From Ginglymostoma cirratum (lineage: Eukaryota), in the NCBI GenBank assembly GCA_024137785.1, contig JAHRHZ010000076.1, forward strand, positions 1,646,048 to 1,710,047: a stretch of 64,000 bases of DNA, written 5' to 3'. A program made the translations under genes and the position numbers. Position 1 is the stretch's first letter. The number at the start of each line of letters is the position of its first letter. Shown here piece by piece: positions 20,255 through 62,279 of this stretch. The notes below the pieces were generated by a model, which saw only the letters and a list, made by a program, of their open reading frames with translations, did no database searches and had not been told where the DNA came from.

Positions 20255-20340
20255 ATAAATTTGGGAACAAAAACAGAAATTGCTGGAAAAATGTAGTAGG
20301 TCTGGCAGCAGAAAATATAATTAACCCTTCTTCAAAACTG
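20255..20340 (-). mobile_element. Decayed fragment of the PLE-derived module
   Basis: aacaaaaacagaaattgctggaaaa...aggtctggcagca...cccttcttca resembles 7925-8064. Confidence 0.6.
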
Positions 20341-22755: not shown

Positions 22756-24869
22756 AAAATAATATTTAAACTCAGGGCAGGTTTTAATTCTTGATTTCTG
22801 CCAAGGGAACTCCCCATTGTTGCTGTGTGATACTGTGTCAACAGCTGTGATACTGAGCCATACAGGACAGAAAAAAAAACAAGTGCAATGCCCAGTATGT
22901 GTGAAGAATGTTGATTAATCTAGAATGTTGGAATACTATTATCTATCATGAAGTTTGTGAAATAAAGTAGAAAAGAAAATAAAAAAAATCATGATTTCTG
23001 CTATCCAGTAGCTGCTGTTAAAAAGATACATTTGCAGGAATTGGATGAAAGTATAATGAATATCGATATGTTACCTCTATGAACAGATTGATTAGTCCCT
23101 GCCTATGCTCCAAGGGTCATCAATTGGAAATAGTGCAAAAATGCTCCACCGTTGAGAACATCAATGTCTTCAGGAGTAAAGAGGAAAGCGGGGTAATGCA
23201 AATTATTAATTTAGACTTTATATTGAATTGTATAAGGGTCATACACATTGTCAAACCTAGCTTTAAATGTTGAATGAGTTTGATCTGGAAGAACCGATTG
23301 TAGAATGTCTATTCCTGATGAAGTCTGGTTATGATAACAGACAAACATTCAAAGCCACCATCTCACATTCATCATACACAATCTTTTAAGAGTCATTACA
23401 CTTCAATTATGCCCAGTATATCAAAGAATAGCTGGCCATGCTGACTAAATAGGTTACGAGTAATAGTTGAATCTAATCAAACCTGCGTTCTTCATTCTTA
23501 GTTCTGTGATCCTTGAAATGAAATTTGAAATACAGCTGATAGCATATTTTTTCATAAAATGATTCTGTAGTGATGGCATATATCATCACCTTCGTGATTT
23601 TTATAATTCCTTTTATTAATACTTTGGTGCATTGCTGAGTTTTCCAGACAAGCAGTCTGAGTAAGGACGTACATATCTTTTGTACACATTTATTTTTAAA
23701 TTTGACATTCATAAAAGTATTGAAACTGGAATTAATACCATCATATATCTAAATCAGTAATACAACACAATTGAATAATCTTATTATCTCCCAAATTGTA
23801 AGAAAAACAGAATATATTGGCTTGCTATAAATCAACATTAATGCAAAAAATAAGTATTAAAAGTAAGCCCAAATTGGCCTGAAGCAGGGAAGTAAATGTA
23901 ATTGAACTGAAATGTACATTAAGGGATCAATAGTCCTCAATATGTTATAAACTACGTTGTGATTATTTTCATTTCTCAGGAAGAAAAACAGTGTTCCAGT
24001 TGCACCGAAATATACTTTCCTGCTCTAGACATTGAGTTTGTTCTCAAGAGATAATCGTCTTAACTCAATGTATAGTTTTATTTTCATTGCACACAGATTT
24101 GGTTTGAAAAAAAAATTAATGTTTCTTTACTTAATGGTGAAGAGGAAAATAACATCAAAACAAGTATTCTAAAAAAATGAGGCATTAGATAAGTCAAATC
24201 TTGCTTGAAATTTATGAGGTACCTGAACCCGATGTTTTCAGGCCAAGTTTCGAGGTTGCACTGTAAATTGAGTATCTTGCTAAGAGACTGTTATGCTGTA
24301 TTTGTAGGGAATTAAGTTATAAGGATTAAAGAAATCAAATTTGACTGATTAAATTGAATTCAGGAACTATTGCCGTGATTCTGTCTTACTTTTGCAAGTA
24401 GACAGAATTTGAATAAAGGACACATTTTGCAGCTCTCTCACCTCTTTTCATCTTAATTTCACAGCTATCTTTTAATATACACACACTTATCTCATTTCTG
24501 TGATTTAGTAGTAGATTTGTATCAATTTAAAGAACCTCTAAGACAATTGTGGCTACAGTTGGCATCTTCAATGCCTGGCTAAGTTTCATTCCAATATGGC
24601 CAACAGACCAATGATATCAAATTATTCTGTTCTACAACAGGCTGCTGGGGCATTTACACCAATGTAGGTTGATTTTCTTTTCTATGAGTAGCTTTTCACT
24701 TTCAAAAGTTTGTGGGAGAGCAAGACTCATCATTTCAGTTACGATGAACATAAGTCTGCTTTCTACCATGACACTGTATAATATGTCGGAAGTCAAAAGT
24801 TTGATTTACTCACACAACCAAAGATGTTATGATTCTTTTTTTATAATTCTTAGTCTAACATATACATTA

Positions 24870-25222
24870 GGGCAGCATGGTGACTTAGTGGTTAGCACTG
24901 TTGCCTCACAGCACCAGTGGCCTGGGTTTGACGCCAGTCTTAGGTGACTCTGCGTGGAGTTTGCATATTCAACTCATGCATGTGTGAGTTTCCTCCAGGT
25001 GCTCCATTTCCTCCCACAGTCCCAAGATGTGCAGGTTAAGTGGATAGGCCATGTTAAATTGCCTTGGACTGTCCAGGGATTTGCAGGCTGCGTGGATTAG
25101 TCATGGGAAATGCAGGGTTACAATTATAGGGAAGGTGATGTGTCTGGTTGGGATGGTCTTCTGAGAGTTGGTATGGACCCGATGGGCCAAGTGGTCTGCT
25201 TCCACATTGTAGGGATTCCATG
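24870..25222 (+). mobile_element. HE1-type V-SINE
   Basis: Full head, V-domain and tail; homologous to 12600-12932. Confidence 0.9.
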
Positions 25223-25904
25223 AAAAACAACAATTCAATGAAGGTTTTAAATATTACGTTGAGATAATCTTTTTCTATGTATTATTTGAAATATATTATT
25301 CTTTATGATTTTTATTAATGATTGTCCTGAGTGTATTGTGATGGGTGCTTCATTTTAAATTCATGGAATTGATCCCAAATTGACATGGAAATTACTGGAA
25401 AATGGAAATTTGTTTTCAAGCATGGTTTATTAAAAATAAAATTTGTAGTGACGTTTTTTCAATACTGCATGCGAAACTGCAGATGAACTTGTGCCTCTAC
25501 TATTACGAAGAGTCAATGCCTGTGAAGAGAAAAGGCAGGGAGAAAATTGCACAGAAAAAAATGAACCGCAAACGCATAAAAAAGCAAAGAGACCTGCAGT
25601 CAATGCATTTTTAAAAAATTAAATCTGTATCTTATTAAAATTTCTTCAGTCAGAATCCTGAGAGAAACAGCAATAATGGCAATTTAATCTGAAGGGTTCT
25701 CCACTGGAAATCTGCATCAGATTATGTTTCTGCTCTATGTTGATTGTTTTAATGCGTATCATTGCTCCTTAATAATGTTTCTCTATCATCCAATTTTCCT
25801 TTCTTTATCTCCTTAACCACCTCCTGACTGATGTTGTACTACAGTTCAGTAAGTGTCAACTATCCTCAGATAAATAGTCACTTCATACTGCATAACATGA
25901 GCAT

Positions 25905-27845: not shown

Positions 27846-28777
27846 TCTATGGCCGCTAAATGACACAAAGGCAAGCTAGCCAAGTGAACGTAGGTTCACC
27901 TCAAAATTCTGGGGACGGACACTCAATCAGTCATCTCCATCCAGGAAAATTTAGCACCACAATTATACAAGTTGCATTTTCAAATAACATTAGACAGTCT
28001 GGGACATTTTCTTCTCTTCCTAGCCTAGGGGCATATATCAACTGTTGACACTCACAGACATGAAAATTACTGTTGCCATCAACAGTTTCACTGTTGTGGA
28101 AGAAGTGGCTAACACATCAAGAGTAGATTTTGCAAATGCATGCTGTTACAACACTGAACTGTAATGGACTTTCCACACATGGTGAACAGTAATTCATTTG
28201 GTGAACTTTTATTGTGAACCAAACTTCTGAGTGCATGATCCTTGTGCACAAAACCTGTACAAAGAACCCAGCATCCACTTCTTATTCTCTGATAATTAAG
28301 GAAGGAACAATATTGTTGGCCTTGTTGTTGGATGTTCTTTTCAATCAGGGAGATTACAGCTGCATCACCAGTTGGTAGACAGTGCTACACTATATTCAGA
28401 TCATCAAGTTGTGGACTGGATGTCTGCAGAGTTTCTTTTTGTTAATGTCACTGGACAAAATGCCACGATTGTCTGTTGCTCACAACAAGAGGAATTTTGC
28501 ACCTTTAGCGAAAAAGTTGATCCACAGATAGCATTCAGTCAACATTACTTTAATTCATGAAAGAAAAGAAAAAGTGGATGGGAAGAGAAATTGTCACAGG
28601 CTGCCAGAGATATCAGATAATGCTAAGATCGTTCTCACTGGACCCATTGCCAGGATGGTCATTTAGAATTGGTTGTGACAATGGGAATGGAGTCTAAAAG
28701 CAGGTAAGTTTTGCAAAAACTGTACAAAGCTTTAGCGAAGCCACTGTTGGAATACTGAGTCCAGTTTGGGAAAATAG

Positions 28778-28951
28778 TAGAGACAATAAAACTGCAGATG
28801 CTGGAATCCACGGTATGATATAGGAGCAGTCATCGTTTCGGGTAGTACCCTTCTTCCTCCTGAAGAAGGGTATTAAACAAAACATTGGCTTCTCCTCCCC
28901 TCCAGATAGTGCCTGGCTTGCTGTGTTCTTCCAGCCTCCCGTTTGTCTACC
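28778..28951. mobile_element. Inverted two-part PLE-derived hammerhead module
   Basis: Minus part (actgcagatgctggaatc..cgtttcgggtagtacccttc) followed by plus part (cctgaagaagggtatt..). 12-bp TSD TTGGGAAAATAG (28766-28777/28952-28963). Confidence 0.75.
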
Positions 28952-28969
28952 TTGGGAAAATAGAAACTT

Positions 28970-29149: not shown

Positions 29150-31125
29150 TTTCTTTTATATGCACTTGTGAGACATGGTCATCGCTGGCTGGCCAGCATT
29201 TATTGCCCATACTTGGTTGCCCTTGAGAAGGTGGTAGTGAGCTGCATTTTCAAACTGCTGCGGTCCGTGTTCTGTAGGTTGATCCACAATGCCCTTAATA
29301 GGAAGGGAATTCCAGGATTTTGACCCAGCAATAGTGAAGGAATGGCGATACATTTCCAAATCAGGATAGTGAGCGGTTTGGAGGGGAATTTGTAGGTGGT
29401 AATTTTTTTTTATGTGTCTGCTGTCCTTGTCCTTCGAGATGGAAAGGATCATGGCTCCTGCCTAAGGATATTTGATGAATTTCTGCAGTTTACTTGTACA
29501 TATTACATACTGTTGCGACTAAGCATCAGTGGTGGGGAGATTGGATGCTTGTAGATGTGATGCTGCATTTTCCCAGATAGTGTCAATTTCTTGAGTGTTG
29601 TTGCAGCTGAACCCATTGATACAAGTGAGGAGTATTTCATCACACTCCTGACTTGTGCCTTGAAGATGGTGGGCAGGCTTTGGAGAGTCAGGAGGTGAGC
29701 TACTCACTGCAATATTCCTAACCTCTGACCTGCTCTTGTAGCCACCATATTTTTTATGGTGAGTCTAGTTGAGTTTCTGGTCAATGGTAAGCCCCAGGAT
29801 ATTGATAGTAGGGAATTCAGTGATGGTAACATCATTGAATGTCAAGGGGCAGTGGTTGGGTTATCTCTTATTGCAGATGGTCATTGTCCAGCATTTGTTC
29901 GGTGCAAACGTTTCTTGCCACTTGTCAGTCCAACCCTGGACATTGTCCGGATCTCGCGCATTTGAACACGGACTCAGTATCAGGGAGTTGTGAATGGTGC
30001 TGCACATTTTGCAATAATTAGGGAACATCCCCACTTCTGACCTTATGATGGAGGGAAGGTCATTGATGAAACAGCTGAAGATGGTTGGACCTAGGACACC
30101 AGTCTGAGGAACTCCTGCAGAGATGTCCTGGAGCTGAGATGACCGACCTCCAACAACCACAGCCATCTTCCCAAATGCCAGATATGACTCCAACCAGCAA
30201 AGAATTTGCCCCCTGATACCCATTGATTCCAGTTTCGTTAGGGCTCCTGATGCCTCACTCGGTCGAGTATTGTGTTGATGTCAAGGGCTGTCACTCTCAC
30301 CTCGTCTCTGGAATTCAGCTCTTTTGTCCATGTTTGAACCAAGGACGTAATAAGGTCAGGAGCTGACTGGCCCTGACAGAACCCAAACTGGGTGTCACTG
30401 AGCCAGTTATTGCTAGCAGGTGCTGTTTAACAGGGCTGTCAATGGCACCTTCCATCATTTTACTTATGATTGAGAGTAGACAGATGGATTGGTAATTGGT
30501 CAGGTTGGATTTGTTCTATTTTTTGTGTACAGTATATATCTGGGCAAATTTCCACATTGTTGGATAAATGCCAGTGATGTAACTCTTCTGGAACAGTTTG
30601 GCTAAGGGAGCAGCAAGTTCTGGAGCACAAGTCTTTAGTACTATGGCTGAAATGTATTCAGGGCCCATAGCTTTGCCATAGCCATTGCTTCTGTTTCTTG
30701 ATAACAAGTGGAGTGAATTGAATTGGCTGAAGATTGGAATCTGTGATGCTGGGGACCATTGGAGAAGGCCAAGATGAATCATCCACTTGTCACTTCTCAC
30801 CGAAGATTTTTGCAAATGTTTCAGCCTTATCTTTTGCACTGATATATTGGGTTCTTCCATCATTGAGAATAGGAAAATTTGTGAAGCCTCCTCCTCCTGT
30901 GAGTTGTTTAATTGTCCACCATCCTGCATGACTGGATGTGGCAGGATTGCAGAGTTCAGATCTGATCCGTTAGTTGTGGGATCGTTTAGCTTTTGCAATC
31001 ACTTGCTGCTTATGCTGCTTGGCATGCAAATAGTCCTGTTTGGTAGCTTCACCAAGCTGATACCTCATTTTTAGGAACGCCTGACGCTTTTCCTGACATG
31101 TTGTCCTACACTTTCCATTGCCCTT
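29150..31125 (-). mobile_element. CR1-group LINE (RT to 3' end), 5' truncated
   Basis: ORFs 29861..30223 (GVPQTGVLGPTIFSCFINDLPSII) and 30516..30998 (KAMGPEYISAIVLKTCAPELAAPL). 3' tail at 29150-29225. Confidence 0.9.
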
Positions 31126-31427: not shown

Positions 31428-32599
31428 GTCTCACAGTTAGTATGCAGTATACCTTTAAGAGGCAAACTCATGATATTACAACTCTAACATAGTGTGTGGC
31501 CTGAATTTTTAAATGTCTCAGACTCCATCTTAACAAAGGCCACTCAAAGCATGGCTAGCTGTTGATCGGGTGCAACCCTTTGCAACTGAATAGCTTAATA
31601 TTAGGTCAGGCATTGAAGCGCTCATGAGAGTAATATTTATATAAACCTGTAATAAATGTCTGTTCATATTATCACATTATCCACATCTAGTTCTTATGTT
31701 ATGGGAGCTAACATAAACATTGCCACATCAGGTACAAAGACACTACTGGAGGTAATGAACTCACAACGGCAGTAGTTCAGTTATATGTAAGGACTATACT
31801 TTACGTACAATGAACAGAATCTGGCAAGCCCCTGAACATAGGAATTAGTGAGAAGTTTTGGAAAATAGGATGAGATCAGCAGTCAAAAGATTCTTGATGC
31901 CAAGAGCTAAATGCCCTATTTTCCAACCAAGTGTTGAACAGTGAGCCAAAAATCTCACTCATGAGTAGCAGTAGCTCTATTAGCAAATATTTACATGCAT
32001 TAATACCTCACTATTAGCTAATCTTGCCTGATTTATAAGCAGTTTCACCTTCTCCCATCCACCAGATAGAAACAGAACAGTGAAAACTCCTGAAAGTCAA
32101 AGTGGGTACCTGGCGATTCCAGTTCACTGCTCATTCCTCTGAACCCCCCAAGTTGGATAGCAGTCACCAACATCTCATGGCAAGCACCATGGCAACCACA
32201 TACATACTACATCCATAGATGTTGGCATTGTATACATACCAACCTCAGTGCATCATCATGGCATGTCTCCAATCTACTTGCAGTATGGTTCAATGCTGCG
32301 CTTTGGAATGGACTGGCACCTTTCATTGTAATGCTACTTCCAGGACATTATGCACACAGGGATAGGCACTCGTTTCATGGATTGAACAAAGCTGCATATC
32401 AGAACTGCTCACTTGATCCTTTAGCACTTATTCACTTTGCACCCTCTCGCATGTTCACAGGATCTCTGCTTAACCATGCTTTTTAGTATTTTGCCCCCTC
32501 AGCCAGAACATAAAGACTCACAGTATTCTGTCTTGACACAAAGACAAGCAACTTGTCATGGTTGCCAGCTGTTGTTTATCAAGTAGATGGACATAAGGC

Positions 32600-32730
32600 A
32601 TAAAAAAAAGAACTGCTGATGCTGGAAATATTTGTTCTGAGGAAGGGTCGTTGGACATGAAACATTAACTCCATTTTCTCTGCACAGATATTGTTGGACC
32701 TGCTGAGTTTTTCCTGCAATCTCTGTTTGT
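32600..32730. mobile_element. PLE-derived hammerhead module with a short inverted tip
   Basis: aactgctgatgctggaaat (minus), then gttCTGAGGAagggtcgttggacatGAAACATTaact (plus). Confidence 0.7.
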
Positions 32731-32952
32731 GAAGGAGCTGGGCATGTTTTTTGTCACCATGTCATGTCAATTTCAAAGCAGCACTATATGTAAGCAGCAT
32801 ATGAGCCAAGCACATGACATTTGCATCAACTTAATAGCCACGTCTCAAAGTCAAAGCCAAGTATGCTTACGCCATGTCTAATTCTGCTGTGGGGAAGCTA
32901 TGGCCTAGCAGTATTATTGCTAGACTATTAATCCAGAAACTCAGCTAATGTT

Positions 32953-33630: not shown

Positions 33631-33694
33631 GTTCTGGGTACAGCGGGTGATCTATGTTGATGTTAGGTCAAACATAGTCACCATGGACCATGAT

Positions 33695-33860
33695 AACTCA
33701 GTGATTAGCATGCTGCCTCACAGCACCAGGATTTAATTTAATTGGGTGTCTGCCTGTGTGGAATCTGCATATTTTTGTCGCGTCTGTGCAGTTTTCCTCC
33801 GGGTGCTCTGGTTTCTTCCCACAGTCCAAAGATGTGCAGGCAAGGTGGATTAGCCATTTG
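33695..33860 (+). mobile_element. HE1 SINE partial
   Basis: tgctgcctcacagcaccagg...cccacagtccaaagatgtgcagg. Confidence 0.8.
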
Positions 33861-36295: not shown

Positions 36296-37184
36296 TTTGA
36301 TGATGATGATGCTACATGCTTAGATTCTTACAAATCTGTTAAATTACATGCGTTTCCTTGCTTATATCGATGCCATAGTATGTAAAACCCCTTTCCTGAC
36401 CATCTGTTTGGACAGTAATTATCTAACTGAGTTTTGACAATGCTATCTTGAGCCTCGTTTGGGACATTGTGATTTGGGGACATCCAGACTCATGTTGCTT
36501 TGACTCCAGGAACTCCTTCAAAAAGATTAACACAATAGGTTGTACTTGAATTCAGTGCTGCCCTGTTGCCTGCTCATCAATGTGATCACTTTGTTGCATT
36601 GGCTTGCGCTTATCTTGTTTCACAATCTCTTGATTAGATCGAGTATTCACTGGTTAAAAAAGACTGACAGCTTCCTTGGAGATACCCATAGTCTAACAAA
36701 CTTTAAAGGAAAGGTTTCTATTTGGCATGAACTAATCCTTTCCATTGCTCCCTGTTATGTTCTGAATATGCAGAACTTTAGCTAATGTTCAACTGAGCTT
36801 GTCCATCATGTTTTATACTTATATTACAAAAAAGACAGTTGTAACTGAATGACTTAAGGAGAAGAATTTCTCATAATACTTGAATACTATAGATACCATC
36901 CTGCAAGAACTTGATTCAAACAAAAATGGACTTTCTGAGTCACTTGCAGTGCATGTGAAGACCCAGACGATGAGAGAAATGTACATGATTGAAGTGTGGC
37001 AAGGCCACAATTTTAGGATTCACCATACCCCATCTTTACATTGTCCAATTGTTTTTTTTCAATTACAGCAAATATATGAAATTAGAAATATTTGTGATCA
37101 GTTTGTCACCTGTGAACTCCCTGTCCCTACCTGCGAATGAAAGAGGTGTATGTTTGCCAGTTATTTATAGGCCAGTTATTTATA

Positions 37185-37472
37185 GGTGGCACAGTGGTTA
37201 GCACTGCTGCCTCACAGCACCAGGGACCTGGGTTCAATTCTACCCTTGGGTGACTATCTGTGTGGAGTTTGCACATTCTACCTGTATCTGCGTGGGTTTC
37301 CTCTGGGTGCTGCAGTTTCCTCCCACAGTCCAAAGATGCGCAAGTTAGGCCATGCTAAATTGCCTGTAGTGTTCAGGGATGTGTGGGTTATAGGGGGTTT
37401 GGTCTGGGTTGGATGCTCTGAGGTTCAGTGTGGATTTGTTGGGCTGACAGGCCCCACATTGTAGGGATTCTA
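37185..37472 (+). mobile_element. HE1-type V-SINE
   Basis: Head ggtggcacagtggttagcactgc. Preceded by the 15-bp tandem duplication (gccagttatttatag)2. Confidence 0.9.
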
Positions 37473-40414
37473 TGATTTCCAAGACATTCACATCTGTGAA
37501 ATGGTAAGTTTTTCTAATTGGCCCACATCCAGCTTTACGTTAGGGCTAAATTTCATTCTGGGCTGGATTCCTTGCCTGCCTTTCAGAAGATGATGACACT
37601 AGGTGTCAGTTTTGAGTTGCCTCTGAGTTACCCTTTTAAGCATCAAATAGAGCTCTATTAAAGAGTTGCAGTTTTGTCGAGAGATAATGAGTTAGTTGTT
37701 CTCATTGTTTATTGCTACAGTGTTGTTTGGCATTATAGAAGATCAAAAGGATCGATTTGAAAAGTGCAGCAATCAAAAGTTTATTGGGCTCAATTAAATT
37801 ATTGCAACTTATCCTGTTTTAGCAAACCTTTAGAAGTTCTACTGTGATTACTAACTTTCCTTCATTGACTGTCAGCTTATCAACATTAAATAGGTCCTTG
37901 TCCGTATGTAAAACGCAAAGATTTAGTAATATATTGTGCTTATACACATCTGATTAATATAACAAAGCTCAAAGCATTTCTTATAAAAAGGAATTTTCAT
38001 GAACATATGGTCTCAATATTAACAGGAAAGCAAAGGGGTGGAGATGACAATCAGGGCTCTTTGTAATATTAAAAACATAAATTTTGGGAAGAGGTACAAC
38101 ATGGTATAGATTTGTTTAGTTAGTGTTCATCTTAGATCTTTTTACGTGTGACATGACTAGGCTATTGAAATTAGTTTTAAAATTCAAAGCCCTTTGATGC
38201 TCAATTTAAGAACATTGCAAATAAACCAAACTTGACTTTTTTACAGCGCTAATAATGCTTTTGGTTCAAGCATTAGGAGCACTTTTTTTTATCTGCAAGC
38301 ACAAGAACTAAGTTATGCAAGATTCCTGTTTGAAGTGAACCTTCAAAATAAAGGAACTAACAAACAAAAGAGAGACATATTGGGCACACTTCGCTACAAA
38401 AGAGCAAATTTTCTTCTTCATTGCATAGGTGGTAATCTGGTGGAGATGATCGCTTGCCTGTTATAGAATCTTCTCAAGTCTCTTTTCACTGATTGCAATC
38501 TGAAAATTGGACTATTCTGTACCAGGAAGCTGATCTGCTCACTTAGATTGCCACTCATGAGGTTAAGGTGTGAAATTTTGTTCCAATAGTTTTCTTTCTT
38601 AGCAGTATGCAAACTGCACTAGCTACCATTTTCCACAACTTCAGAAATACCATATTATCATTCAGTGATGTATTTTAAAATGACCCTGCAAACGAAAGCG
38701 ATTACCGGATCAAGAAAGCTATCAGGTTTATTCGACAAGTGCACAGGGGAAACAGCACTCTGGGAGGTTGCTTTCATGATCATAAATTTGGGCTACACAT
38801 TCCTGCACTTTACAGTCTCATAGGCTGCGCAGACTTTTCATGCATCGTAGAGTTAGAAGATATGTGCAATGTTTGCAGAGTTTCACACCACACATCACAT
38901 CTCTTGTTAGTGCATTGTAAAGCAAAATAATCCTAATCTATGTATTTGTTTCCTTTGTGCTGATGGTGTGCAGCAATGGCATCCCTTACGTTTCTGACAG
39001 TACCTCACCTACCCAGCCTGGTAGTCATCTCATCCACAGACTAAATAATCCTTTTGACTCGACAGTGTCAATGGTGTCCCTCTTCCCTTTGTGTGGCAGA
39101 GGGGTTTCCACCCGACCCTGTCTATCACTATGGTTCTTTACTAGATTATAATTGCTCCTAGCATTGGCAGTTATTTTAATCATGATGTCCCTTTGTGCAT
39201 GTTAGGGTGATTATTTTTCTTCCTAGTCTGTTTATTGCAGTTAGTCTACTTCCAATGTTAAATGATATTGCTTCTATTTGCTTGACCATTAATTTCTACA
39301 TTTGCTATCCCTCCTGCAACAGCCAGACTTGTTAGTTGTTGGGACAGCACTGAGTCACAGTGTTGATCTTTCTTAACACTCCCAGACCGATTATTGAAGC
39401 GGCAAATCAAAATCCTGATTTAAAAAGTTTATATTATTTTCATAAAGATGATCAAGAATATGTTGATAATAAATTGTTTTGTGTGCAAATGTAAATCAAA
39501 TTTATTCTGTAGGGAAAAACTCTTGTGAAGTGGAGGGTTATTCTGTGAGAGAAGGTCCCACGCATGAACTGAGCATTGGATTTGGAAAGGTGCACATTAT
39601 TTTGTAACTCCCTGAGAAAAAGGACATTGTTGTATTTTGCGATTCTTGAGAGGGGTGTCATCTAAAAGCCTGGAAGAGAATGGTTGAGGTGCTCCTAAAA
39701 TCTAAAAACCTCATTATGCAGGTGGAGACTTAATAAGGTGGGGGGTGCAAGTCTGTTTTTCAAGGGGCCACAAAAGTGATCTGTGCAAAGTCTGCCTCAC
39801 CACCCTGAAAATATATTCTTCCCCTATTTAACCCATCTTCACGCCTACAGGTTAACCAGGCAATGTGAAATTTGGACCTGCAAAGGCTCCTGTAGGACAT
39901 TCACATTCATCAGCTGTGAATAAGACCTGGCTAGTTCCCTAAGTGGTGTATGCAGCGAAAATATCTACCTACCACTGTTCAGGTTTCATTATTTGGTGAT
40001 AAGTTTTGACATATATTTCAATACTTATTGTAAAAAATTCTTCACAGCAAACTAACCTAATTTACAAAATGGACATGTTTGCTTTATGGACAGATGACAG
40101 GTAATTTTTGTACAGAAAGGTGAAGGAAACTGGTTTGGTGATATTTCTTGACTGTTGAATTTTTTTGCACTTCTTTAGGAAACAAAATGTGATGTAGCCA
40201 TAAGTGTTATACTGAGTAAATTGAACTTGCTGAAGGTAATCTAACCAAGCATACGGTGCTGAGGCTTATCGTGTAATATGAAATCTGATACGTGTAACAA
40301 TGCAATGTTCTTTTCGCTGCACTGCAATGCCAGTCGAGATTAAGTGGCCGAATACTGAACCAGACTCAATCAATAAGACGAATCAGCATATTTTTATCCA
40401 CTGATTTACTGTTA

Positions 40415-41890
40415 CAGAGTCAGAGAGTCTACAACATTTTAAATGTTGTACCTGTACTTGCATCTACCACTTCCTCTGGCAGTACATTCCACATGCGAAC
40501 TACCCTTCAAGTCCCTTTTAAATCTTTTTCCTCTCAACTTTAAAGTATGCTCCCTAGTTTTGAACTCTCCCACCATGTGGAAAACACCTTCGCTATTCAC
40601 TTTATCTATACCGCTCATGATTTTGTAAACCTCTATAAGGTCACCCCTCAACCTCCTATGCTCTAGTGAAAAGAGTCCCTGCCTATCCAGCCTATCCTTC
40701 TATCTTAAACCCTTCAGTCCTGGCAACATCTTACGACTCAGGGCCCTACTATTTACAATGGTGGCTTAGTGGTTAGCACTGCTGTTTTACAGAGCTAGGA
40801 ACCTGGATTCGATTCTAGCCTTGGCCGGCTGTCGTGTGGAGTTTGCGTATTCTCCTCATGTCCGCATGGGTTTCCTCCAGGTGCTCTGGTTTCCTCCCAC
40901 ATTCCAAAGAATAGCAGGCTAGATGGATTAGCCATGGGAAATGCAGGGTTACAAGGGATAGGGTAGTGGAGGTGGGTCTGGATGGAATGCTCTTTGGAGG
41001 GGTGGTGTGGACAAGATGAACTGAATGACCTGCTTCCACACTGTAGGAATTCTATCATTAACTGTGTAAGTCATGCCCTTATTTGTTTTACCAATATGCA
41101 ATATCTCGCTTTTAAACTCTATTTGCCACTCCTCAGACTGTTGGCTCAATTGATCAAGATCCTTTTGTAATCTTAAATAACCTTCTTCACTGTCAGCTAT
41201 AGCATCAATTTTGACTGCAAACTTACTAATAATGCCTCCTAAATTCTCATTCTAATGATTTATATAAATGACAAACAAAGGTGGACCCAGCACCGATCCT
41301 TACAGACATTACTGGTCACAGGCCTCCAGTCTGAAAAATGACCGTCCACCATCACGCTCTGTTTCTTACTGTCTAGCCAAGTTTGTATCCAGCTGGCAAG
41401 CTCTCCCTGAATCCCATGTGATCTAACTTTATTGATTAGTCTACCATGCAGATCATTGTCAAAGACTTTACTAAAATCCTTGTAGAAAATGTCTCCCTCT
41501 CTGCCCTCATCAATCTGTTTGGTTACTTCCACAAGAAATTCAATCAAGTTTGTGTATGGTTTCCCATACACAAAGCCATGCTGACTATCCCTAATCAGTC
41601 CTTGCCTCTCCAAATGTTTGTAAATCCTATCTCTCAGAAGTGATACCACTGATGTCAGATGTACAGGTCTATAGTTCTGGGACTTCTTTATGTAGCCTTC
41701 CTTAATTAAAGGCCCAACGTTAGCCTCACTGTAGTCCTCCAGCACCTCACCTGTGGCCATAGGTGATACAAATACCTCTGCTAGAGGCCCTGCAATTTCT
41801 TCTCTAACTTCCCATAACCTCCTGGGGCACACTAGATCAGGTCTTGGAGATCTATTCACCTTTATGTTTTTTAAGACCTCCAGGACTTTC
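40415..41890 (-). mobile_element. CR1-type LINE RT and 3' end, split by an HE1 SINE
   Basis: ORF 41260..41892 (NYRPVHLTSVV..SQHGF..DFSKVFD) and ORF 40439..40651 (RGDLIEVYKIM). Confidence 0.85.
40757..41057 (+). mobile_element. HE1-type V-SINE between CR1 segments
   Basis: ggtggcttagtggttagcactgc, ggattcgattc, V-domain and tail. Confidence 0.88.
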
Positions 41891-41919
41891 ACTTAGACTA
41901 ATAAGTTTATCAATCCACA

Positions 41920-42632
41920 GAGTCATACACCATGGAAACAGACCCTTCGGTCCATGCCAACAATATCCCAAACTAAACTAGTCCCACCTGCCTGCTCTTG
42001 GCCCATATCCCTTTAAACATTTCTTATTCGTGTACTTATCGAAACATCTTTTAAACATTGTAACTGTACCCACATCCACCACTTCCTCTCGACGTTCATT
42101 CCACACACGACCCACAGTCTGTGTAAAAAAAATGCTCCCTCATTTCTTTTTTAAATCTTTCTCCTCTCACCTTAAACATATGCCTCCAAGTCTTGAAATC
42201 CCCCATCCCAGGGAAAAGACACCTGCCATTCACCTTATGTATACCCTCATGATTTTATAAACCTCTATAAGGTCACCCCTAAACCTCCTATGCTCCAGTG
42301 AAAAAGACCCAGCCTATTCAGCCTCATACCACAACTCAATTCTTCCATTCCCAGTAATATCCTGGTAAATCTCTTCTCACACCTCTCCAGTTTAATAATA
42401 TCCTGCCTACAGCAGGGCAACTAGAACTGTACACTGTACTCCAGAAGATGTCTCACCAACATTCTGTACAACATCAGCATAACATCCCAACTCCTATATA
42501 TTCAAAGGTCTGAACAATGAAGACAAGTGTGCTAAAAGCCTTCTTAACCACCCTGCCTACATGTGATACAAACTTTGAAGAATTATGTACCTGAACATCC
42601 CAGGTGTCTCTGCTCTACAACACTACCCAAGT
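41920..42632 (-). mobile_element. CR1/HER1-type LINE 3' fragment
   Basis: agagtcatacaccatggaaacagacccttcggtcc tail plus RT C-terminus. Confidence 0.85.
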
Positions 42633-46225: not shown

Positions 46226-46349
46226 AGCTGCAAATTACTGCAGATGCTGGAATCTGTACGGAAAATAACAAATGTTGGGTGTCATAGCAGGTCAGACAAC
46301 ATCGACGGACAGGGAACAAGGTAACATTTCAGGTCTAGATAACTATAGG
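46226..46349 (-). mobile_element. Short PLE-derived module
   Basis: actgcagatgctggaatctg..gcaggtcagacaacatc. 11-bp TSD TGAGTGGTCTT (46215-46225/46350-46360). Confidence 0.75.
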
Positions 46350-46750: not shown

Positions 46751-48904
46751 GGGATACTACCTAAACAGGAGAGATTCTGATTCTTCTTAAAGAGGAAAAG
46801 GATGAGCAGTCAGAATTCTTTGCTCATATTCACCACTACATTGTCAAGTGAAAACATCACAGGTAAGAGTAAGGAGGTGGAGAAAGCTGAAATGGAGAAA
46901 AAGAACCAGGAAGAAAAGCTTCAAGAAAGGTATTAGAAAGTGGCAGATTGTTGAATGGAATCTTTGTCCTCCAGACATTTATAGTGGTGATCGACGATGC
47001 TAGAAGTTTAAACTCTGGGATGATGAGGTTATTTGACTTTGATATTGCCTTTGCACAAGATTGCTGAGTGAACTTTTATATTTGATCTATAAAGATTAAC
47101 TGACTTTTGGATTTCATCCTTGATTGACTACAAATGAGTTTGAGATTGATTTGACCCACGAATGCTATTGATGAATTATTGATCTCAGCATTTGGATTTA
47201 AAATTTCAATTAAATTAAAATTCACATTGGTGTTTTACATTTTTTCCAAACACATTTTATCGTGTCTTTCCTTACATTTGTTGTTTTATGCGTGGAATAT
47301 GTTGAAGTGTTAATAGCTTGATGATTTTTTTTAAAAAATGTATTAAAATGCTTAAGAACAGGAAAGAGCTATTCAAACTATTCAGCATTTTTTACTATTC
47401 AATTGACATGAGGCATAATTTGCAACCTTGACATTAATAGATCATGAAATAAAACACAGCACTCCAAAATTTCAGTTGAGATTTAACACTTTAATTGTTA
47501 ACCAATAGCAAATTGAAATAATGGAGAGAATTTTATGCTCCCAGCACTGTCTCCCAACACTACCTTCCAACCCCCTCCAAACTGCATTGGAATAATTGAA
47601 GGTGGGGGGAGGAAGTTATGTAAAATAAGATATTTTAAAGTAAGATATGTTGGTGACCATTCCTAATCTTCTCACCAACCCCAACCTGACCCCACATTAT
47701 GGACCAGAATAAGATATCAGCCTCCTTGACTTGATTTGGACTCTGAGGGTACAGTGCCTGGGTCCTTACCAAACCATTTCTCCACAACACAGTGAAGACC
47801 CCCTGCCTCATTGGCATTTTTAATTCCATGCCCAGATTTCTTTGCAGGAAAACTCATTGATTCTACTCTCTGTCTCTTGAAACTCATTTCTCTCTTTTTT
47901 CTCTTCACTTTTCATTGTCCCGTTCTCTTTTGTTGTAATTATCTCTCTGGTCTCCTCCTTTCCAGCTTTACCGTGTCTTTTATAGCAATGGTAATTATTC
48001 TGGTAAAGGAATCCATTTATTTCGGCTTTGACCCTTCTGACTGTTCTGAATACAGATGAGACCCAACTGCTTATAAAGTCTCTGGTGAATCTTTGCTCCT
48101 CAAGAAGAACTTTTATCCTTGCTTTCTTAGCTACAAATCTCAATGGTCTTAGAGGGACTAATATCTCAAGAGTTAATTTTTCCGTGCGCATGTGTGTATG
48201 TGTGTGTGTTTGAGTGTGTTAAAACTTTTGTGATATTTAAGGGCAGACATGTTTATACCATTGTATTACTGACTATGTTTGTTCATTATTGAATCTTTAT
48301 TGGAAGCTATTGTTTTATTAAACAATAATTGTGCATATAAGAAATATAGTTGATCCATTTTTTGTTTAAAACCTGATACAGATTAAATATTTAATTGGTC
48401 ATCTTGGTAACTAGAAAACATATTTAGATTTTTATATTGTGATCCACGAAGTAGCAGGACCAGACTGATGATGCACTTCTCCAGCTTCAGTTGTAAAATT
48501 AAGATGCACTCCCTCCAAAACTCTCAATTTATGAAATTCAATTTTTAAATGACTCACAACAAAACTTTCTTTAGGATTACAATAAAAAGAATGGTTTATA
48601 CCGGCAATCAACCTGGGGTTCTGGGGTTTTGATTCAAAACACACACTCACACTAATGAGCAGGATGGGAAGAAAGAAAGAAGAAAATAAGCTACAATTAC
48701 AAATTACGAAGAAGAAATCAAAGAATTAGGTGAAATGAATCAGAATCCAGTTAATCAATGTGATTTCAAGTCAAGTAATTTCTCGCAATTGCTTAATCTG
48801 GCAGAGTTCCTTTTCGCAGGGCCTCAGATGTGGATGAATTGAATTTGAAGACACAGCATTATTATTCTTAAAGGCTGGGAAATGAATTCACTTTTCAAGT
48901 AAAA

Positions 48905-49236
48905 TCATAGAGTCCCTACAGTGTGGAAGTGTGCCATTTGGCCCATCAAGTCCACACTGACCCTCTGAACAGCATCCCACCTAGACCCAGCCCCCTACTT
49001 TATCCCCCTAACTCCGCATTCCCCATCGCTAATCCACCTAGCCTGCACACCCCTGGATATTATGAGGCAATTTAGCATGGCCAATCCACCAAAACTGCAC
49101 ATCTTTGGATTATGGGAGGAAACCTATACAGACACAGGGAGAATGTGCAAACGCCAAACAGATAGTCACCTGAGGGTGTAATCAAACCTGGGTCCTGGCG
49201 CCATGCGGTGCAGTGCTAACCATTGATCCATCGTGT
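48905..49236 (-). mobile_element. HE1-type V-SINE
   Basis: Reverse complement of an HE1 head, V-domain and tail. Confidence 0.88.
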
Positions 49237-49297
49237 TGTATAGGATTCTTTCTGGAAATCAGACTTTTGAGAGACCGGGGCACATCTTAGTTAAGTC

Positions 49298-49394
49298 AAG
49301 TTTTCCTGCTCCTATGATGCTGCTTGACCTGCTGTGTTCATCCAGCCCCATGCTTGTTATCTCGGATTCTCCAGCATCTGCAGTACCTTTTATC
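49298..49394 (+). mobile_element. Young short PLE-derived insertion
   Basis: Near-identical to about 16-116. Perfect 13-bp TSD TCTTAGTTAAGTC (49285-49297/49395-49407). Confidence 0.88.
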
Positions 49395-49777
49395 TCTTAG
49401 TTAAGTCTTGAGCTTGTTGGCTATTTTCTCTTCTAGCATTAAAAGCTGATTAACCAAAGCAGGCAAAGTTGTTCAAAATCTAGCAATTTCTATCACATGG
49501 CTGGGAATTCAAATTCAGACACACAACTAATGAGTTGAAATTGATATCCGTTAATCCAAAGCATTAAATTTTGTCAGAGATAACTGTGGAGTCGTTAGCA
49601 GCATCTCAGACATAATGTGTCTCATTGGTTTCCTTTGTTCCAAATTGACTGAGTGTAGACAATTCGTCTTTGGTTTTTGTGTGTTTGTTTAACATGCCCA
49701 TGTTTCTAGAAAGATTAGCAGGAGCATATAGCATAGCATAAAAGCATTTGAATGTTTCATAAGTAAGTAAGAAAGAA

Positions 49778-49988
49778 TAACACAGTGTGGAGCTGGAGGA
49801 ACACAGCAGGCCAGGCAACATTAGAGGAGCAGGAAAGTGACGTTTCAGGTCAGGACCCCTTTTCTGAAGAAGGGTCGTGATCTGAAACGTCAGCCTTCCT
49901 GCTCCGCTAATGCTGCCTGGCCTGCTGTGTTCATCCAGCTCCACACTGTGTTATCCCTGACTCCAGCATCGGCAGTTCTTACTATCTC
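49778..49988. mobile_element. Palindromic (head-to-head) PLE-derived hammerhead module
   Basis: 49778-49858 is an imperfect reverse complement of about 49870-49954. Plus-strand core CTGAAGA..GAAACGTC. TSD TAAGAAAGAA (49768-49777/49989-49998). Confidence 0.85.
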
Positions 49989-50169
49989 TAAGAAAGAAAG
50001 AATAGTCAGGTAAACATTCAGCAACTGGAATGTTTCAAGCAAGAAGCAAGATTATTATGTTTGCAAGGTAAGACTTTGTAAACAAAAATGTTTTCAAGTA
50101 CAAAGTACTTAAGAGGGCCAGAAAAAGGCACTTACCTGATAAGCACACCTGATTGTCAGAACAAGATGT

Positions 50170-50300: not shown

Positions 50301-51984
50301 CAGAACTATGCCCGATTTTGCCAAATAAACATGTCGAAAAGGCATCATTGTAAGAAAGTTGAAAACGGGAAAGCAAATGTGTCAGGTTGTGAGAGATGTG
50401 GAAGTTGATAGAGACAATAGGAATTAGTTGGAAGGATGTTTAGACAGTTCTCAAAAGGAACAACCTAATATTCAACTAGCTAGCACAAAAATACTGGGAC
50501 AGTGATACACTGTGTTCTCATGTTTAGAAAAAGGATGATAGAAGGACCCTGCCTTAGAGCAAAGTTACGCTGTTCCCCAAGCTTCAACCAGAGCTGTTTT
50601 GGAATAAGCCATAGGACGTCTTAATGTGAGGTTCCAATGACTGGATCTGTCAGGCTGTGTCATGGAGGAAAGCCTAGCAGGGTGTCCCATATCATTGTGG
50701 CGTGCCGGGCCTCCAGGCTGACGTGTGAGATGAAGGCAAAATGCTGAAAACACAGAAATCACTTAAGAACAAAGATAAGGGTGATGATCTTGAAATGGCA
50801 CAATAGGAGCTTCAAAGAAAAGAAGAGAGGATGTTGTCTGGAGAATCTGAGACATGAGGGGCAATTTAATAGACACCCATATCGAGACTGCCTGAGCTGG
50901 GTGTGGACTTTCTACTTGCTAGTTGTATTGTTATTTGCTTAGCTGACATAACGGCCTTCGCTTGGGGTTTACCACATTTTAATGTCTTGAGTTATTTTTC
51001 CTGTTCACTGCTGTAGTGAATAAAAAGTTCAGTTGTTCTTTCAAATGTAGATCTGATATCTTCACCTCTATGAAAGGTAAAATGTCAGTACAAAACTTTC
51101 CCTTAACGTTACTGACAAAGCAATCGTAAAAGAGTGAGCAGTTCCATTAGGTTGCTCTGCTGCAGTTCATGCTAACGTGGTCCTTTTGCCTAAGACATAT
51201 GAGTAATGTCAGGGAGGTCACATCCCTATGAGAACGACCACATTATCACTCGCACTGAGAATGCTCCTTATGAGAGATTTTCAATGACTTTCCCTTAAAT
51301 AATTTACATTCCAATGAGACTTGTTGCAAATGTAATGTGAGTGGACTATCAGTATTCAACTTGCATCATTTGACTTTAATACCTGAGACTGTCACAGACT
51401 AAAATTTATTTTAATGTTCACTACTGATCTAAAGTGGCTGCTGTCATCACTTGACGAGCCCAGGCCAATTTACAAAATTGGCTGCATCAGAATTACTATT
51501 TTAATTAAAAGGCTGAAACTGAGTGAGGCAGCAAGAAATTCACATCTCTTGTTTTACACGTACTTGCAATGACAAATTCACATCTTGGCAGATCTAAGGT
51601 TTCCTACAATTTGGAATTAAACAATGACATAGGTTGAAGAATCAGTAAAGGAACTGTAAGGATAAGAGCAATCCTTGGGTGAAAGTTCTAAACTGGGGAT
51701 GGGGAGAGGGGTTGTGGGTCAAGGCTAACTAACGTAATATTAGGCATGAACTGGGGAATATAGATTGGGGGCAGTTTTTTGAGAGTAAATCCACATCTAG
51801 CCTGTGTGAATCTTGCAAAGGCCATAGCTGGTATCGGCCCAGCTCAGGGGAGAATGAGACCACATGTGGAAAGCCCCTAGCATGGAACAACTGCAGGCTT
51901 TTTTTGTGCGATATTTGCCTTTTATCTTTATTTCTTTATTTCCTTTAGTTTGTACAAAGACAAACTGTGATGTAGTACTTTTAG

Positions 51985-53806
51985 GTTGTAGACTTGCTCG
52001 CCGAGCCAGTGTGTTTGGCTGCAGACATTTTGTCACCCTGCTAGGTAACATTGTCAACGTGCCTCTGGTGAAGCGTTGGTGCTCTGTCCCACTTGTTATT
52101 TATATGCCTCAGTTTGCTGGGGTAGTTAGCATTACTCCTGGTTTTGTTTTTCAGCGGTTTGTATATCGGGTCCAGTTCAATGTGTTTGTTGATGGAGTTC
52201 CAGTTGGAATGTCAGGCCTCCAGGAATTCCCTGGCATGTGTCTGATTGGCTCGTCCAATTATGGATATGTTGTTCCAGTTGAATTTGTGTCCTTCTTTGT
52301 TCGTGGGTATTGAGACCAGTGAGAATTGGTTCTGTCCCTTGTTGGTTTGTTGATGTTCGTGTATCCTTATTGTCAGTTTTCTTCCAGTTTGGCCTTTGTA
52401 ATGTTTCTCACAATCCTTGTGTGATAGTTTGTACATTATGTTAGTTTTATTGATTATGGGTATGGGATCTTTTCCGTTTGTCAGTAGCTATTGCAGGGTG
52501 GATGCTGGTTTGTGGGTTACCCTAATACCTAGGGGTCTGAGTAGTCTTGTGGTCATCTCTGAAATGTCTCTAGTGTATGGTAGGGTGACTAGTGTATCTG
52601 GCGGTGTTGTGTCTTCTTGTGGTGGTCTGTCACAAAGGTAATGGCGGATTGTGCTTTTTGGGAATCCATTCCCTTTAAAAACTCCATATAAGTGCTCCTG
52701 TTCTGCTTTGTGCAATTCTGGATTGCTGTAGTGTATTGTGGTCCGTTTGAATAATATCTTGATGCAGCTTCTTTTATGGGTATTGGGGTGGTTACTGGAG
52801 AAATTAAGCAACTGGTCCTTATGTTTGGTCTTTGTGTGTACACTAGTCTGGAGTTCCCCTTTTTCCTTACATTCTACCATTATGTCTAGGAAGGGTATTT
52901 GGTTATTGCTCTCTTCTTCTTTTATGAATTTTATTCTGGTGAGGATGTTGTTTACATGTCAGTGAGTTTCTTCTAGTCGTGCATTTGGTAATCATGAAGT
53001 TGTTATCTACATAGCGGACCCAGAGTTTGGGTTGTAGAGGGGGGGAGTGCTGTTCGCTCTAACCTTTGCATTCCTGCTTCTGTAATCAGTCTTGATTTTG
53101 GGGATCCCACTGGTGTTCCATTGATTTGTTTGAATGTACGGCTGTTAAAGGTGAAGTGGGTTGTGAGGCACAGATCCAGCAGTTTCAGGGTGCTGTCCTT
53201 GTTGATTCTGTTGGCATTTGTGGGATGCCAGCCTTCCAAATTCGTCCAGCAGTGTGGCAATTGTCTCTTTGGCTAGATTGATGTTTAACAATGTAAATAA
53301 TGCTGTAACATAGAAGGATATCATTATCTCATCATCTTACATGCTGGTGTCCTTGATGATGTTGAAGAGTTCTTGGGAGGACTGGATAGAGTGGGTTGTG
53401 TTGTCAACTGAGTTTTCAATTTCTGTTGTAGTTCTTTGGTTGGTCTCTACGTTAGTGTGCCTGGTAGTGAGACAATGGGTCTGCGGGGGAATTCTGACTT
53501 GTGTACCTTGGGGAGTCTATAGAAGCGAGGTGTGTTGGATTCCTCTGGCTTCATTTTTTTGGCAGTCAGCTTTCCTGATATCTCCTGAGTTGTGTAATGT
53601 CTTCAGGGTTGTTTTGATCTGTTTCTCTTACTGTGGTGTTGGGTCTATCGCCATCTCTTGGTAGGTATCGGTATCCGTTAGTAGTGCATTAGCTTTCTCG
53701 ATGTATTGGGCTCGATAAAGGATTATTGTCATGCGTCCTTTGTCCGCTGTTAAGATTACAATGTTTCTGTCTTTCTTGAGTCTTTCCAGGGCTTTCTCCT
53801 CTTCTG
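51985..53806 (-). mobile_element. Penelope-like element (RT plus GIY-YIG), 5' truncated and frameshifted
   Basis: LLDLCLTTHFTFNSRTFKQINGTPVGSP, LNFSSNHPNTHKRSCI and YKLSHKDCEKHYKGQTGRKLTIRIHEH. 14-bp TSD TGTAG(T/A)ACTTTTAG (51971-51984/53807-53820). Decayed hammerhead near 52024-52058. Confidence 0.92.
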
Positions 53807-53820
53807 TGTAGAACTTTTAG

Positions 53821-54000
53821 TTTTTTTCTTTATTTCACTATTTTTGTACCTAATATATTTTAATACCTGAGATTTGTATCTAGGCACTTTGTACTTAACA
53901 TGGCACCACGTGTTAGTGACATTTTGCACTTTTCACTGTACCCTTGTACTTTTGTTCTTAAATACATGTGGCAATAAAACCTAATTCAATTCAATTCAAT
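53821..54000 (+). mobile_element. 3' part of a non-autonomous element with a Rex-like tail; its 5' part probably precedes 51984
   Basis: cttttcactgtac...caataaa...(attca)n tail. Confidence 0.55.
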
Positions 54001-55987: not shown

Positions 55988-56533
55988 TTGTCGCAACTCT
56001 TTAACTGCTATAGGAAGGATGTTGAGAAACATGAAAGTATTCAGAAAAGACTTCCAGGGATGGTACCAGGTTTGGAGAGTTTGAGTGAAAGGGAAAGGCT
56101 GAATAGGCTGGGACTATTTTCCCTGGAGCACCAGAAGTTGACGGGTGACCTTATGGAACTTTATAAAATCATGAGGGGCATGGAGAGGCTGAAGAGCCGA
56201 GGTCTTTTTAGCAGGATGGGGGGAGTCCAAAACTAGACGGCATAGGTTTAAGGTGAGACAGGAAAGATTTAAAAGAGACCTGAGGTGCAACTTTTTTACA
56301 CAGAGGGTGGTGCATGTATGGAACGAGCTGCCAGAGGATGTGGTAGAGGCTGGTACAATGACAACATTTAAAAGACATCTGGATGGGTACATGAATAGGA
56401 AGGGATTAGAGGGACATGGGCCAAATGTTGGCAAATGGGACAAGATTCATTTAGGATATCCAGTCAGCATGGACAAGTTGGACCAACGGGTCTTTTTCCG
56501 TGCCATACAGCTCCATGACTCTATGACTCTATA
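55988..56533 (+). mobile_element. CR1/HER1-type LINE 3' fragment
   Basis: ERLNRLGLFSLE and NFFTQRVVHVWNELP. (tgactcta)n tail. Confidence 0.9.
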
Positions 56534-61400: not shown

Positions 61401-61804
61401 GTATTGATTGGCCAGGGAATGAATCATCTTAAGTAGCACATTTGTTTGCTAGGCACGACCAACGTTTTACAGTTTTAAAATGGCATCCATGACACACGTG
61501 ATCAATCTTGTCATGAAGGGCGCTAGAAGCACGTGGAGCAGAGACCATGATCTGAAGCCTGTAACACTGCCGGTGCTGTCATTTTGGACCTCCAACCTCT
61601 AGTCCCGGCCCCCTGTTAACTTTGCTCAGCTGAATATGTTTTTAAACAGCAGAATACCACTGCTTTAACAGCAGAATTCACCTCTGATATTTTGAATGAT
61701 CATCAACTACTTATAGATTATTTGCTGATTCATTTCTTCTGATTATTGCTGCAAATATGCTAATTGTTTCAAAAGTATATCTGGACAATTATAATTAGTA
61801 CTGA

Positions 61805-61915
61805 GATAATAAGCATGGGGCTGGATGAACACAGCAGGTCAAGCAGCATCATAGGAGCAGGAAAACTTGACGTTTCGGGCCTAAACCCTTCATCAGAAAA
61901 TCCTTTTATCTCTGA
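61805..61915 (-). mobile_element. Young short PLE-derived insertion with an inverted tip
   Basis: Minus-strand module followed by plus-strand ccttttatctct (61902-61913). Perfect 15-bp TSD TATAATTAGTACTGA (61790-61804/61916-61930). Confidence 0.88.
61865..61900 (-). ncRNA. Minimal hammerhead ribozyme motif, intact core
   Basis: CTGATGA-A-GGGT-TTAG-GCCC-GAA-ACGT-C: all core nucleotides, helix II, palindromic ACGT helix III and a GUC triplet. Confidence 0.7.
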
Positions 61916-62279
61916 TATAATTAGTACTGAAGTACTTTTTGTTGATGTCAAGGCTTCTGCACAAACTGGTTGCTCCCAGAAATAGGCGGTTCTTCTGGGA
62001 AAGAGTAAACATCTGAATATAGAAAAGATCACTTAGTACATGCAGTCATTGAGTCATAGAAATCTGCAGCGCAGAAAACGGCCCTTTGGCCCATTTCTTC
62101 CTACATATTGCTAGCATAAGGATGAATCAGTGAAGGACAGTCACTTTCAGGAGGAAGTCATAACTGCCCTTTGTGTTTAGGGTGCAAATCTCCTATCTGT
62201 ACTTTGTGAATGCTGAGAATTTGAGATAATTGTACTTCACTGAACAGGTCTTCATTGAACTCTGATAACAGAGGCAGAA

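Follow-up and report, generated by a model that had tools for sequence, protein, structure and literature searches.

The window analysed here is a stretch of 64,000 nucleotides of Ginglymostoma cirratum DNA that carries many short insertions related to a hammerhead module. The copy at 61805 raises the question of what produces such insertions and what sets their ends. The first-pass annotation had proposed that they form a retrozyme-like family of their own. In this work, the tiny insertions are identified as pLTR pieces of EN+ Penelope-like elements (PLEs); they are neither retrozymes nor random truncations.

Positions within the module are numbered from +1, a purine that precedes the CUGA box by four bases and the cut site by 32 nt. 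This base lies at 61901 (-), 14778 (-), and 2932 (+) in the window and at L090:1368 in one of the other loci analysed. Genome-wide counts refer to the assembly of 4.36 Gb in 289 contigs. The copy at 61805 and the other copies in the window are as follows.

61790 to 61804, plus strand: left TSD of the 61805 copy, a 15-bp exact repeat.
61803 to 61901, minus strand: main arm of the 61805 copy by sequence and profile, a pLTR that spans +1 (61901) through +99, the short 3' end, with an extra T after +1.
61865 to 61901, minus strand: minimal type I hammerhead of the 61805 copy, predicted from sequence and cross-lineage pairing.
61900-61897 with 61868-61865, minus strand: helix I of this hammerhead, with CUGAUGA at 61896-61890 and the extra A at 61889.
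61888-61877, minus strand: helix II of this hammerhead, with GAAA at 61876-61873, the ACGU palindrome, and the predicted cut at 61869/61868.
61902 to 61915, plus strand: inverted stub of the 61805 copy, 14 nt of the long 3' end (+132), joined to +1 of the main arm.
61916 to 61930, plus strand: right TSD of the 61805 copy, a 15-bp exact repeat.
1 to 117, plus strand: young-lineage arm with the long end, its 5' part lost in the N before the window.
2381 to 3062, plus strand: 5'-truncated PLE with the endonuclease C-terminus, the 3' UTR, and the module with the long end; a TATA-like box lies within the 3' UTR about 30 nt before +1 (2932).
7925 to 8064, minus strand: short copy of an older lineage that starts at +1, with the long end and a decayed core; 13-bp TSD at 7912-7924 and 8065-8077.
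10739 to 10880, plus strand: short copy of an older lineage that starts at +1, with the long end; TSD unconvincing (6 bp).
14680 to 15305, minus strand: 5'-truncated PLE with the endonuclease C-terminus, the 3' UTR, +1 at 14778, and the module with the short end.
18464 to 18585, plus strand: short copy that starts at +1, with an internal deletion across the core; no TSD found.
20250 to 20335, minus strand: decayed short copy; no TSD found.
28778 to 28951, both orientations: head-to-head pair of a further lineage; 12-bp TSD at 28766-28777 and 28952-28963.
32598 to 32735, both orientations: inverted long-end stub with a main arm spanning +1 to the short end; no TSD found.
46226 to 46349, minus strand: short copy without the CUGA box, with the long end; 11-bp TSD.
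49298 to 49397, plus strand: young copy with its start at +33, the hammerhead cut site, and with the long end; 13-bp TSD at 49285-49297 and 49395-49407, to which the GTC before the start belongs.
49780 to 49993, both orientations: head-to-head pair, the left arm with the short end and the right arm from +1 to the long end with an intact core; 11-bp exact TSD.

A profile built from eight real window copies, together with self-BLAST, recovered all 11 short copies listed by the first-pass annotation and both long fragments, which bears out the reported relationship of the short insertions to the module that ends the coding PLE fragments. The profile search identified 14 arms in the window and 0 matches in the reversed-sequence control. 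Exact TSDs of 11-15 bp flank 6 of the 10 assessable short copies (copy 1 is outside this count since N directly precedes the window), as the annotation had claimed for several copies, and an exact repeat of at least 11 bp was found in 3 of 150 random position pairs. The exact-repeat check of the flanks gave no TSD of at least 7 bp at 10741, 18465, 20255, and 32600. Head-to-head pairs are present at 28778, 32600, 49778, and 61805. The complete core reported for 61805 was found as a full minimal hammerhead on the minus strand, with CUGANGA, GAAA, NUH, an extra base following position 9, and a palindrome at positions 15.2-16.2. The description of the copies as one hammerhead-module family holds for their PLE origin and needs correction in two respects: the window copies belong to at least three diverged lineages, and the CUGANGA..GAAAYGUN parse is retained in only 3 of the 14 arms (14776, 49862, and 61898). 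The hammerhead core is wholly absent from 46226 and 49298.

Other repeats are also found in the window. The 7925 copy is flanked by a 100-bp inverted repeat (87%; 7818-7917 and 8081-8176), as if it had been inserted in the middle of a MITE-like element. On the minus strand at about 51800-54000 lies the frameshifted remnant of an RT-endonuclease from a second PLE type that lacks the hammerhead module; this remnant looks Poseidon-like by eye, and two pieces of it were without a Pfam match. A separate dispersed repeat family of 300-340 bp (12601-12939, 24853-25223, 33667-33857, 37177-37478, 40750-41059, and 48901-49225) is presumably SINE-like. Fragments of LINE-type RT ORFs (9648-10067, 18688-19523, 30516-30998, 41260-42441, and 56005-56474) are taken by us to be CR1/L2-like.

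The parent of the short insertions was sought in the long copies, which encode in a single ORF an RT and then a C-terminal GIY-YIG endonuclease upstream of the module. The frames at L163 and L219 gave matches to GIY-YIG (E 2.7e-4) and RVT_1 (E 5.5e-4), both under the Pfam curated cut-offs, and no Pfam match was obtained on four fragments from the window. The translations of L158, L163, and L180 exhibit a C-X4-C-X2-C linker. A CX2-5CxxC linker between RT and endonuclease has been described for Neptune and Nematis, and not for Penelope or Poseidon, in the account of PMC8557442. Judged by its linker and domains, the parent is an EN+ PLE of the Neptune/Nematis type. The downstream neighbour of the module in other copies is the start of the ORF at +172. 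The module is therefore found both before and after the ORF, which identifies it as the pLTR. The layout of an EN+ PLE is thus present, with the module before the ORF and after the endonuclease, a tail from +99 to +132, inverted pairs, and TSDs of 9-18 bp.

Density was measured in 60 blind stretches of 10 kb, where 341,972 non-N bases were used and 258,028 of the 600,000 bases were N and left out. These stretches contain 96 arms in 82 insertions, or 1 per 4.2 kb with body-linked insertions counted. The first-pass annotation had put it at roughly one per 6 kb in the window. One young lineage alone accounts for 50,716 exact 29-nt cores genome-wide.

The 3' ends fall at two sites. In a series of 100 successive young arms taken from contig C1, the 3' end lies at +92..+104 in 41 and at +127..+143 in 39; 13 others end elsewhere, 5 beyond +143, and 2 at gaps. 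Both sites, +99 and +132, are preceded by the same heptamer and lie 33 nt apart, and RNA reads lose similarity at the same two sites. The difference between +99 and +132 is the optional PLE tail that is already known, and that tail has been traced to two internal RT start sites in vitro for the anole element (PMC11167929). Of the 14 head-to-head pairs of the blind sample and the window, 12 combine a short and a long end (p 0.006 vs one half), one of these 12 with a truncated arm. Cutting and extension of both target strands has been reported (PMC11167929). Of 24 gap-free arms, 17 lie between TSDs of 9-18 bp, compared with 0 of 24 in the swapped-flank control. Runs of exactly 10, 100, or 400 N lie at the centre of head-to-head copies at many loci, among them L007, L011, L012, L022, L218, and L220, so that this class is probably under-assembled.

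The 5' ends exhibit a different pattern. After 5 of the 100 young arms on C1 had been dropped at gaps, 36 of the remaining 95 stop at +1 (35 at -3..+2; the other scored -9 and, by eye, is an inverted-arm junction), 2 are joined back to the upstream body via microhomology, and 57 continue; the many loci with N runs at the 5' junction are censored in these counts, and arms on either side of an assembly gap may count one junction twice. The 57 continuing arms have 0 breaks at -4..-24 and then 0.01-0.12 breaks per nt over a continuous tail of 49 to >1,500 nt. Three unbiased sets, picked by the 3' anchor only, comprise 69 uncensored arms after 10 were censored and 3 duplicates were dropped. Of these, 25 extend beyond -46, 0 break at -45..-5, and 18 break at -4..+3. 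On the downstream side, 20 break at +4..+22, 0 at +23..+31, 2 at +32..+36, and 4 at +37..+52. This one-sided shape, with a wall at +1 and nibbling downstream, is compatible with an RNA end. Genome-wide, the six upstream body bases are present on 28,087 of the 50,716 exact cores, and the five extra downstream bases are kept by 46,336. Copies linked to the ORF exhibit the same boundary. Among 30 such copies, 11 reach the front of the hammerhead, and 9 of the 11 stop at -1..+13 (7 by the aligner and 2 by eye across a gap); the other 2 extend upstream as tandem junctions.

Priming of PLE copies at the 3' pLTR followed by simple random 5' truncation agrees with the continuous tail in 57 of the 95 young arms and with the heavy 5' truncation that is typical of PLEs (PMC8557442). 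This explanation does not account for 36 breaks packed into about 5 nt when the rate elsewhere is at most 0.12 per nt, nor for the break-free stretch just upstream; it is extremely improbable as a general explanation, and for the short class it is refuted by the breakpoint counts. The copy lengths are a mixture of a sharp +1 class and a continuous tail. The first-pass annotation had reasoned that a continuous length distribution would mark the copies as only 5'-truncated PLEs; with a discrete short class at +1, the lengths are not continuous and that reduction does not follow. A further candidate, in which the 5' ends result from cleavage of an upstream tandem hammerhead, was dropped after the unbiased sets were obtained, the query having selected that 5' sequence.

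The base at +1 lies within a pyrimidine-CA-(T/G)-TT motif that is initiator-like and that is found in body-linked copies of several lineages with differing upstream sequences. A TATA-like hexamer at about -30 was identified by eye in 16 of 20 pyrimidine-rich upstream sequences vs 2 of 47 others, about half of the hits coming from one lineage. It has been reported that PLE promoters (PMC2377424, PMC3846280, PMC8557442) and their start sites (PMC2377424, PMC8557442) are located in the pLTR, and TATA and Inr-like motifs have been reported in rotifer pLTRs (PMC3846280). From the DNA alone, we infer that +1 is probably the transcription start of the element RNA.

Two other origins of the +1 boundary were weighed against an RNA start. 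The first is an RT stall or junction hot spot at +1 on read-through RNA, caused by a C-run, a 6-bp hairpin from about -24 to +3 in the young lineage, or microhomology to partner arms and AT-rich targets. In favour of it, helix I has its first base and outer edge at +1; immediately upstream of +1 in the young lineage are a C-run and a complementary hexamer; and T/A microhomology or stutter occurs at many +1 junctions. However, older lineages without the C-run and the hairpin begin at the same base, and the TATA-like spacing is left unexplained. A stall would also scatter breaks on both sides; a hard RNA end predicts an empty upstream side, and 0 of 69 breaks fall within the upstream 41 nt. We regard a stall as unlikely. 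The second is that +1 is a processed RNA end, made by splicing or a nuclease, or the end of an internally deleted non-autonomous master of pLTR and ORF start that is copied in trans. The older lineage has a pyrimidine tract followed by a YAG whose A is +1, and an intron of D. virilis has its end at helix I (PMC4209133). However, the copies retain the AG and have no upstream exon in common, and the YAG of the young lineage lies about 22 nt upstream, where 0 copies start. The deleted source would agree with the joining of +1 to the ORF start at L005 and L194, but these joints vary among loci and the haplotypes are common to tiny and long arms. Both forms of this second explanation are still less likely than a stall, and transcription initiation at +1 is preferred here.

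The junctions at +1 have further characteristics. A cap copied by RT would be expected to add a G at -1. The base before +1 is G in 2,566 copies vs T in 659 (3.9x against a background of 1:1), but inverted partner arms alone give 14:5 and account for much of the excess. The G is explained by neither the target nor the partner in 2-3 of the 39 G loci read. C, the genomic base at -1, is often found before +1. The first 5-15 nt of the module are stacked as short stutters at the 5' junction of L029, L084, L184, L206, and L243. At L005:1600-1912, L194, and L150:1926, the +1 base of one arm abuts sequence from the ORF start or the 5' UTR of the same element; these joints are consistent with a template jump after run-off.

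The hammerhead itself was examined for its conservation and for traces of its activity. In 16 hand-picked related copies, 86.6% of helix cells are paired, compared with 15-49% in slid controls. Two-sided changes were found at 5 pairs (reached in 6 of 500 shuffles), mostly in helix I and with only 2 cells in helix II, in copies that are related. The pairing of helices I and II across lineages may reflect selection on the parent elements, whose inserted copies decay. The in silico monomer MFE does not contain the hammerhead fold, with folding z-scores near 0, and an Rfam scan found no hammerhead family at E up to 5 and gave four chance matches. It has been reported that the minimal PLE hammerhead is inactive as a monomer and has low activity as a dimer (PMC4209133), and that cleavage occurs only with protein and is dispensable for insertion, unprocessed RNA being the main insertion substrate (PMC11167929). 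The young-lineage hexamer at about -24 is complementary to +3..+8 (L090:1343-1375; window 14770-14803) and is absent from other lineages; judged from these letters, it could mask the CUGA box in read-through RNA only.

The module (L090:1368-1500) is present on 45,009 of 12,895,792 poly(A) records (about 0.35%), on both strands and mostly within other transcripts, and 88% of these continue into unlike sequence. No pile-up of molecule ends was observed in the RNA-seq, the cut site included; host-embedded copies dominate this fragmented poly(A) library, which cannot reveal a start and is ill-suited to small circles. In one deep RNA run, the 43.5-62.9 kb part of the window has neither unique-sequence coverage nor host exons, at a contig depth too low to establish absence. 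No empty-site allele of 61805 was found among the joints listed, where the contig depth is likewise too low for absence. Head-to-head copies could form hairpins in host RNA. The suggestion of the first-pass annotation that the copies could place self-cleavage sites in host pre-mRNA is hypothetical, and the core is gone from most copies.

These data bear on the retrozyme-like reading, in which a self-propagating non-autonomous family has its RNA freed by hammerhead cleavage and copied in trans. The short class is discrete, its TSDs exceed 4 bp, and retrozymes derive from pLTRs (10.64898/2026.07.22.740005). Tandem duplications of the 37-nt hammerhead, natural dimers, occur rarely (L010:1470-1540 and L014:1470-1540; 2 of 30 loci). 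Starts at the cut site are clear at window 49298, L038, L063, and L075, and cut RNA may accordingly be a minor template. Genome-wide, such starts number 597 vs 80 in the upstream control, but they are near the 414 of the downstream control and amount to about 1% of the core count. The base at -1 is A in 57 of the 100 cut-site matches listed, which may be junction microhomology. The copies are monomeric or head-to-head and not head-to-tail units, and the 5' end is mostly found 32 nt upstream of the cut. The core parses in 28 of 110 arms overall, with the extra base in 28 of 28, and the intact ACGU palindrome is present in just 19 of the 110. Private haplotypes are absent: between 41 tiny and 57 body-linked arms, no allele differs (all p > 0.14, with modest power) and the top haplotypes are common to both. 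The retrozyme-like reading is largely refuted already, and we consider it very unlikely. The family of its own that the annotation proposed is not sustained, as the copies form no tandem units and the cut does not bound them; their haplotypes recur in body-linked copies, and ORF-linked copies stop at the same base.

The reading that we hold to be probable is that RT begins at internal sites, within the 5' UTR of the element itself, and runs off the RNA 5' end, which yields dead-end cDNAs. Transcription would begin at +1, where helix I also begins, from a TATA/initiator promoter located in the upstream 3' UTR. The RT-endonuclease would nick AT-rich DNA, and RT would start internally at +99 and +132 in the 5' UTR; nicking and internal starts have been shown in vitro for the anole element (PMC11167929), an analogy limited by the anole biochemistry belonging to the Poseidon clade, by the Neptune/Nematis linker of the element here, and by the TATA-less promoter of D. 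virilis. The cDNA of the 5' pLTR would run off after about 100 or 135 nt and would be joined by microhomology, giving a TSD of 9-18 bp. Alternatively, a start from a read-through 3' pLTR would give ordinary 5'-truncated copies. Both nicked strands would often be extended, one per start site, to give head-to-head pairs. The hammerhead would be a passenger on mostly uncut RNA. The run-off products would have neither promoter nor ORF and would be dead on arrival. As the copies end where RT started, they would also lack the downstream protein-binding region for remobilisation, by analogy with the anole element (PMC11167929).

A variant of this mechanism was also considered. Minus-strand strong-stop DNA of LTR retroelements is a short cDNA that runs from an internal start near the RNA 5' end to that end. 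In the variant, target-primed RT would copy the first 100-135 nt of the capped RNA and would normally jump to the matching 3' pLTR and into the body. The tiny insertions would be aborted strong-stops, and the +1 jumps would be mis-aimed transfers (to the ORF start at L005 and L194, the 5' UTR at L150, and the hammerhead at L010 and L014). In contrast to LTR strong-stop DNA, the copies here would be target-primed and integrated as they are, with no tRNA primer. We regard this variant as doubtful. If true, it would explain pLTR and tandem formation and would tie PLE to LTR replication.

Several reported systems come close to the copies described here. The minimal hammerheads of metazoan PLE pLTRs (Cervera & De la Pena 2014, PMC4209133) have the same core, the extra base between 9 and 10.1, a short helix I, and a palindromic zero-loop helix III. 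They are mostly solo motifs ascribed to truncated PLEs, and close opposite-strand pairs were noted, as here. In contrast to this work, the consulted text of PMC4209133 maps no insertion ends, TSDs, or fixed 5' boundary, and sharks are not among the examples named there. The EN+ PLE insertions of PMC3846280 and PMC8557442 likewise exhibit head-to-head arms, an optional tail of 30-40 nt on one arm only, long TSDs, TATA/Inr-like pLTR motifs, and solo pLTRs. Those accounts attribute solo pLTRs to recombination or deletion, and they explain inversions by self-priming on antisense RNA; among the insertions here, a large proportion is bodiless and stops at one base. Anole Poseidon PAc (Frangieh et al. 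2024, PMC11167929) likewise has two internal RT starts that set the tail, extension of both strands, an uncut RNA template, and a template 5' end that sets the product length. However, PAc starts RT inside the ORF and is without the CX2-5CxxC linker, whereas both sites here are in the 5' UTR, and the main text on PAc does not describe a genomic run-off class. Non-LTR retrozymes (PMC7229834; 10.64898/2026.07.22.740005) are likewise non-coding, hammerhead-bearing, and pLTR-related, with TSDs longer than 4 bp. They differ from the copies here in being head-to-tail tandem, with mostly canonical hammerheads, released at the cut, and circularised.

The element type, solo hammerheads, inverted pLTRs, the tail, and the TSD are already in print. 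Among openly available main texts, no publication on a fixed PLE 5' end or run-off cDNA was found. Fig. S2 of PMC11167929, a supplement on genomic pLTR coverage, could already display the 5' boundary.

PLE insertion, the formation of tandem and inverted structures, and the role of the hammerhead are standing questions that these copies address. Tens of thousands of young fixed-end copies constitute a fossil read-out of PLE replication. They predict that the RNA starts at +1 with an uncut hammerhead at its very front, that RT starts at two sites in the 5' UTR, and that both target strands are extended. They would also provide a simple source for many solo minimal hammerheads in animal genomes, with no new element needed. 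With the module in about 0.35% of poly(A) reads, any activity in host RNA would matter. The fixed start base of many copies offers a simple test of how PLEs copy themselves.
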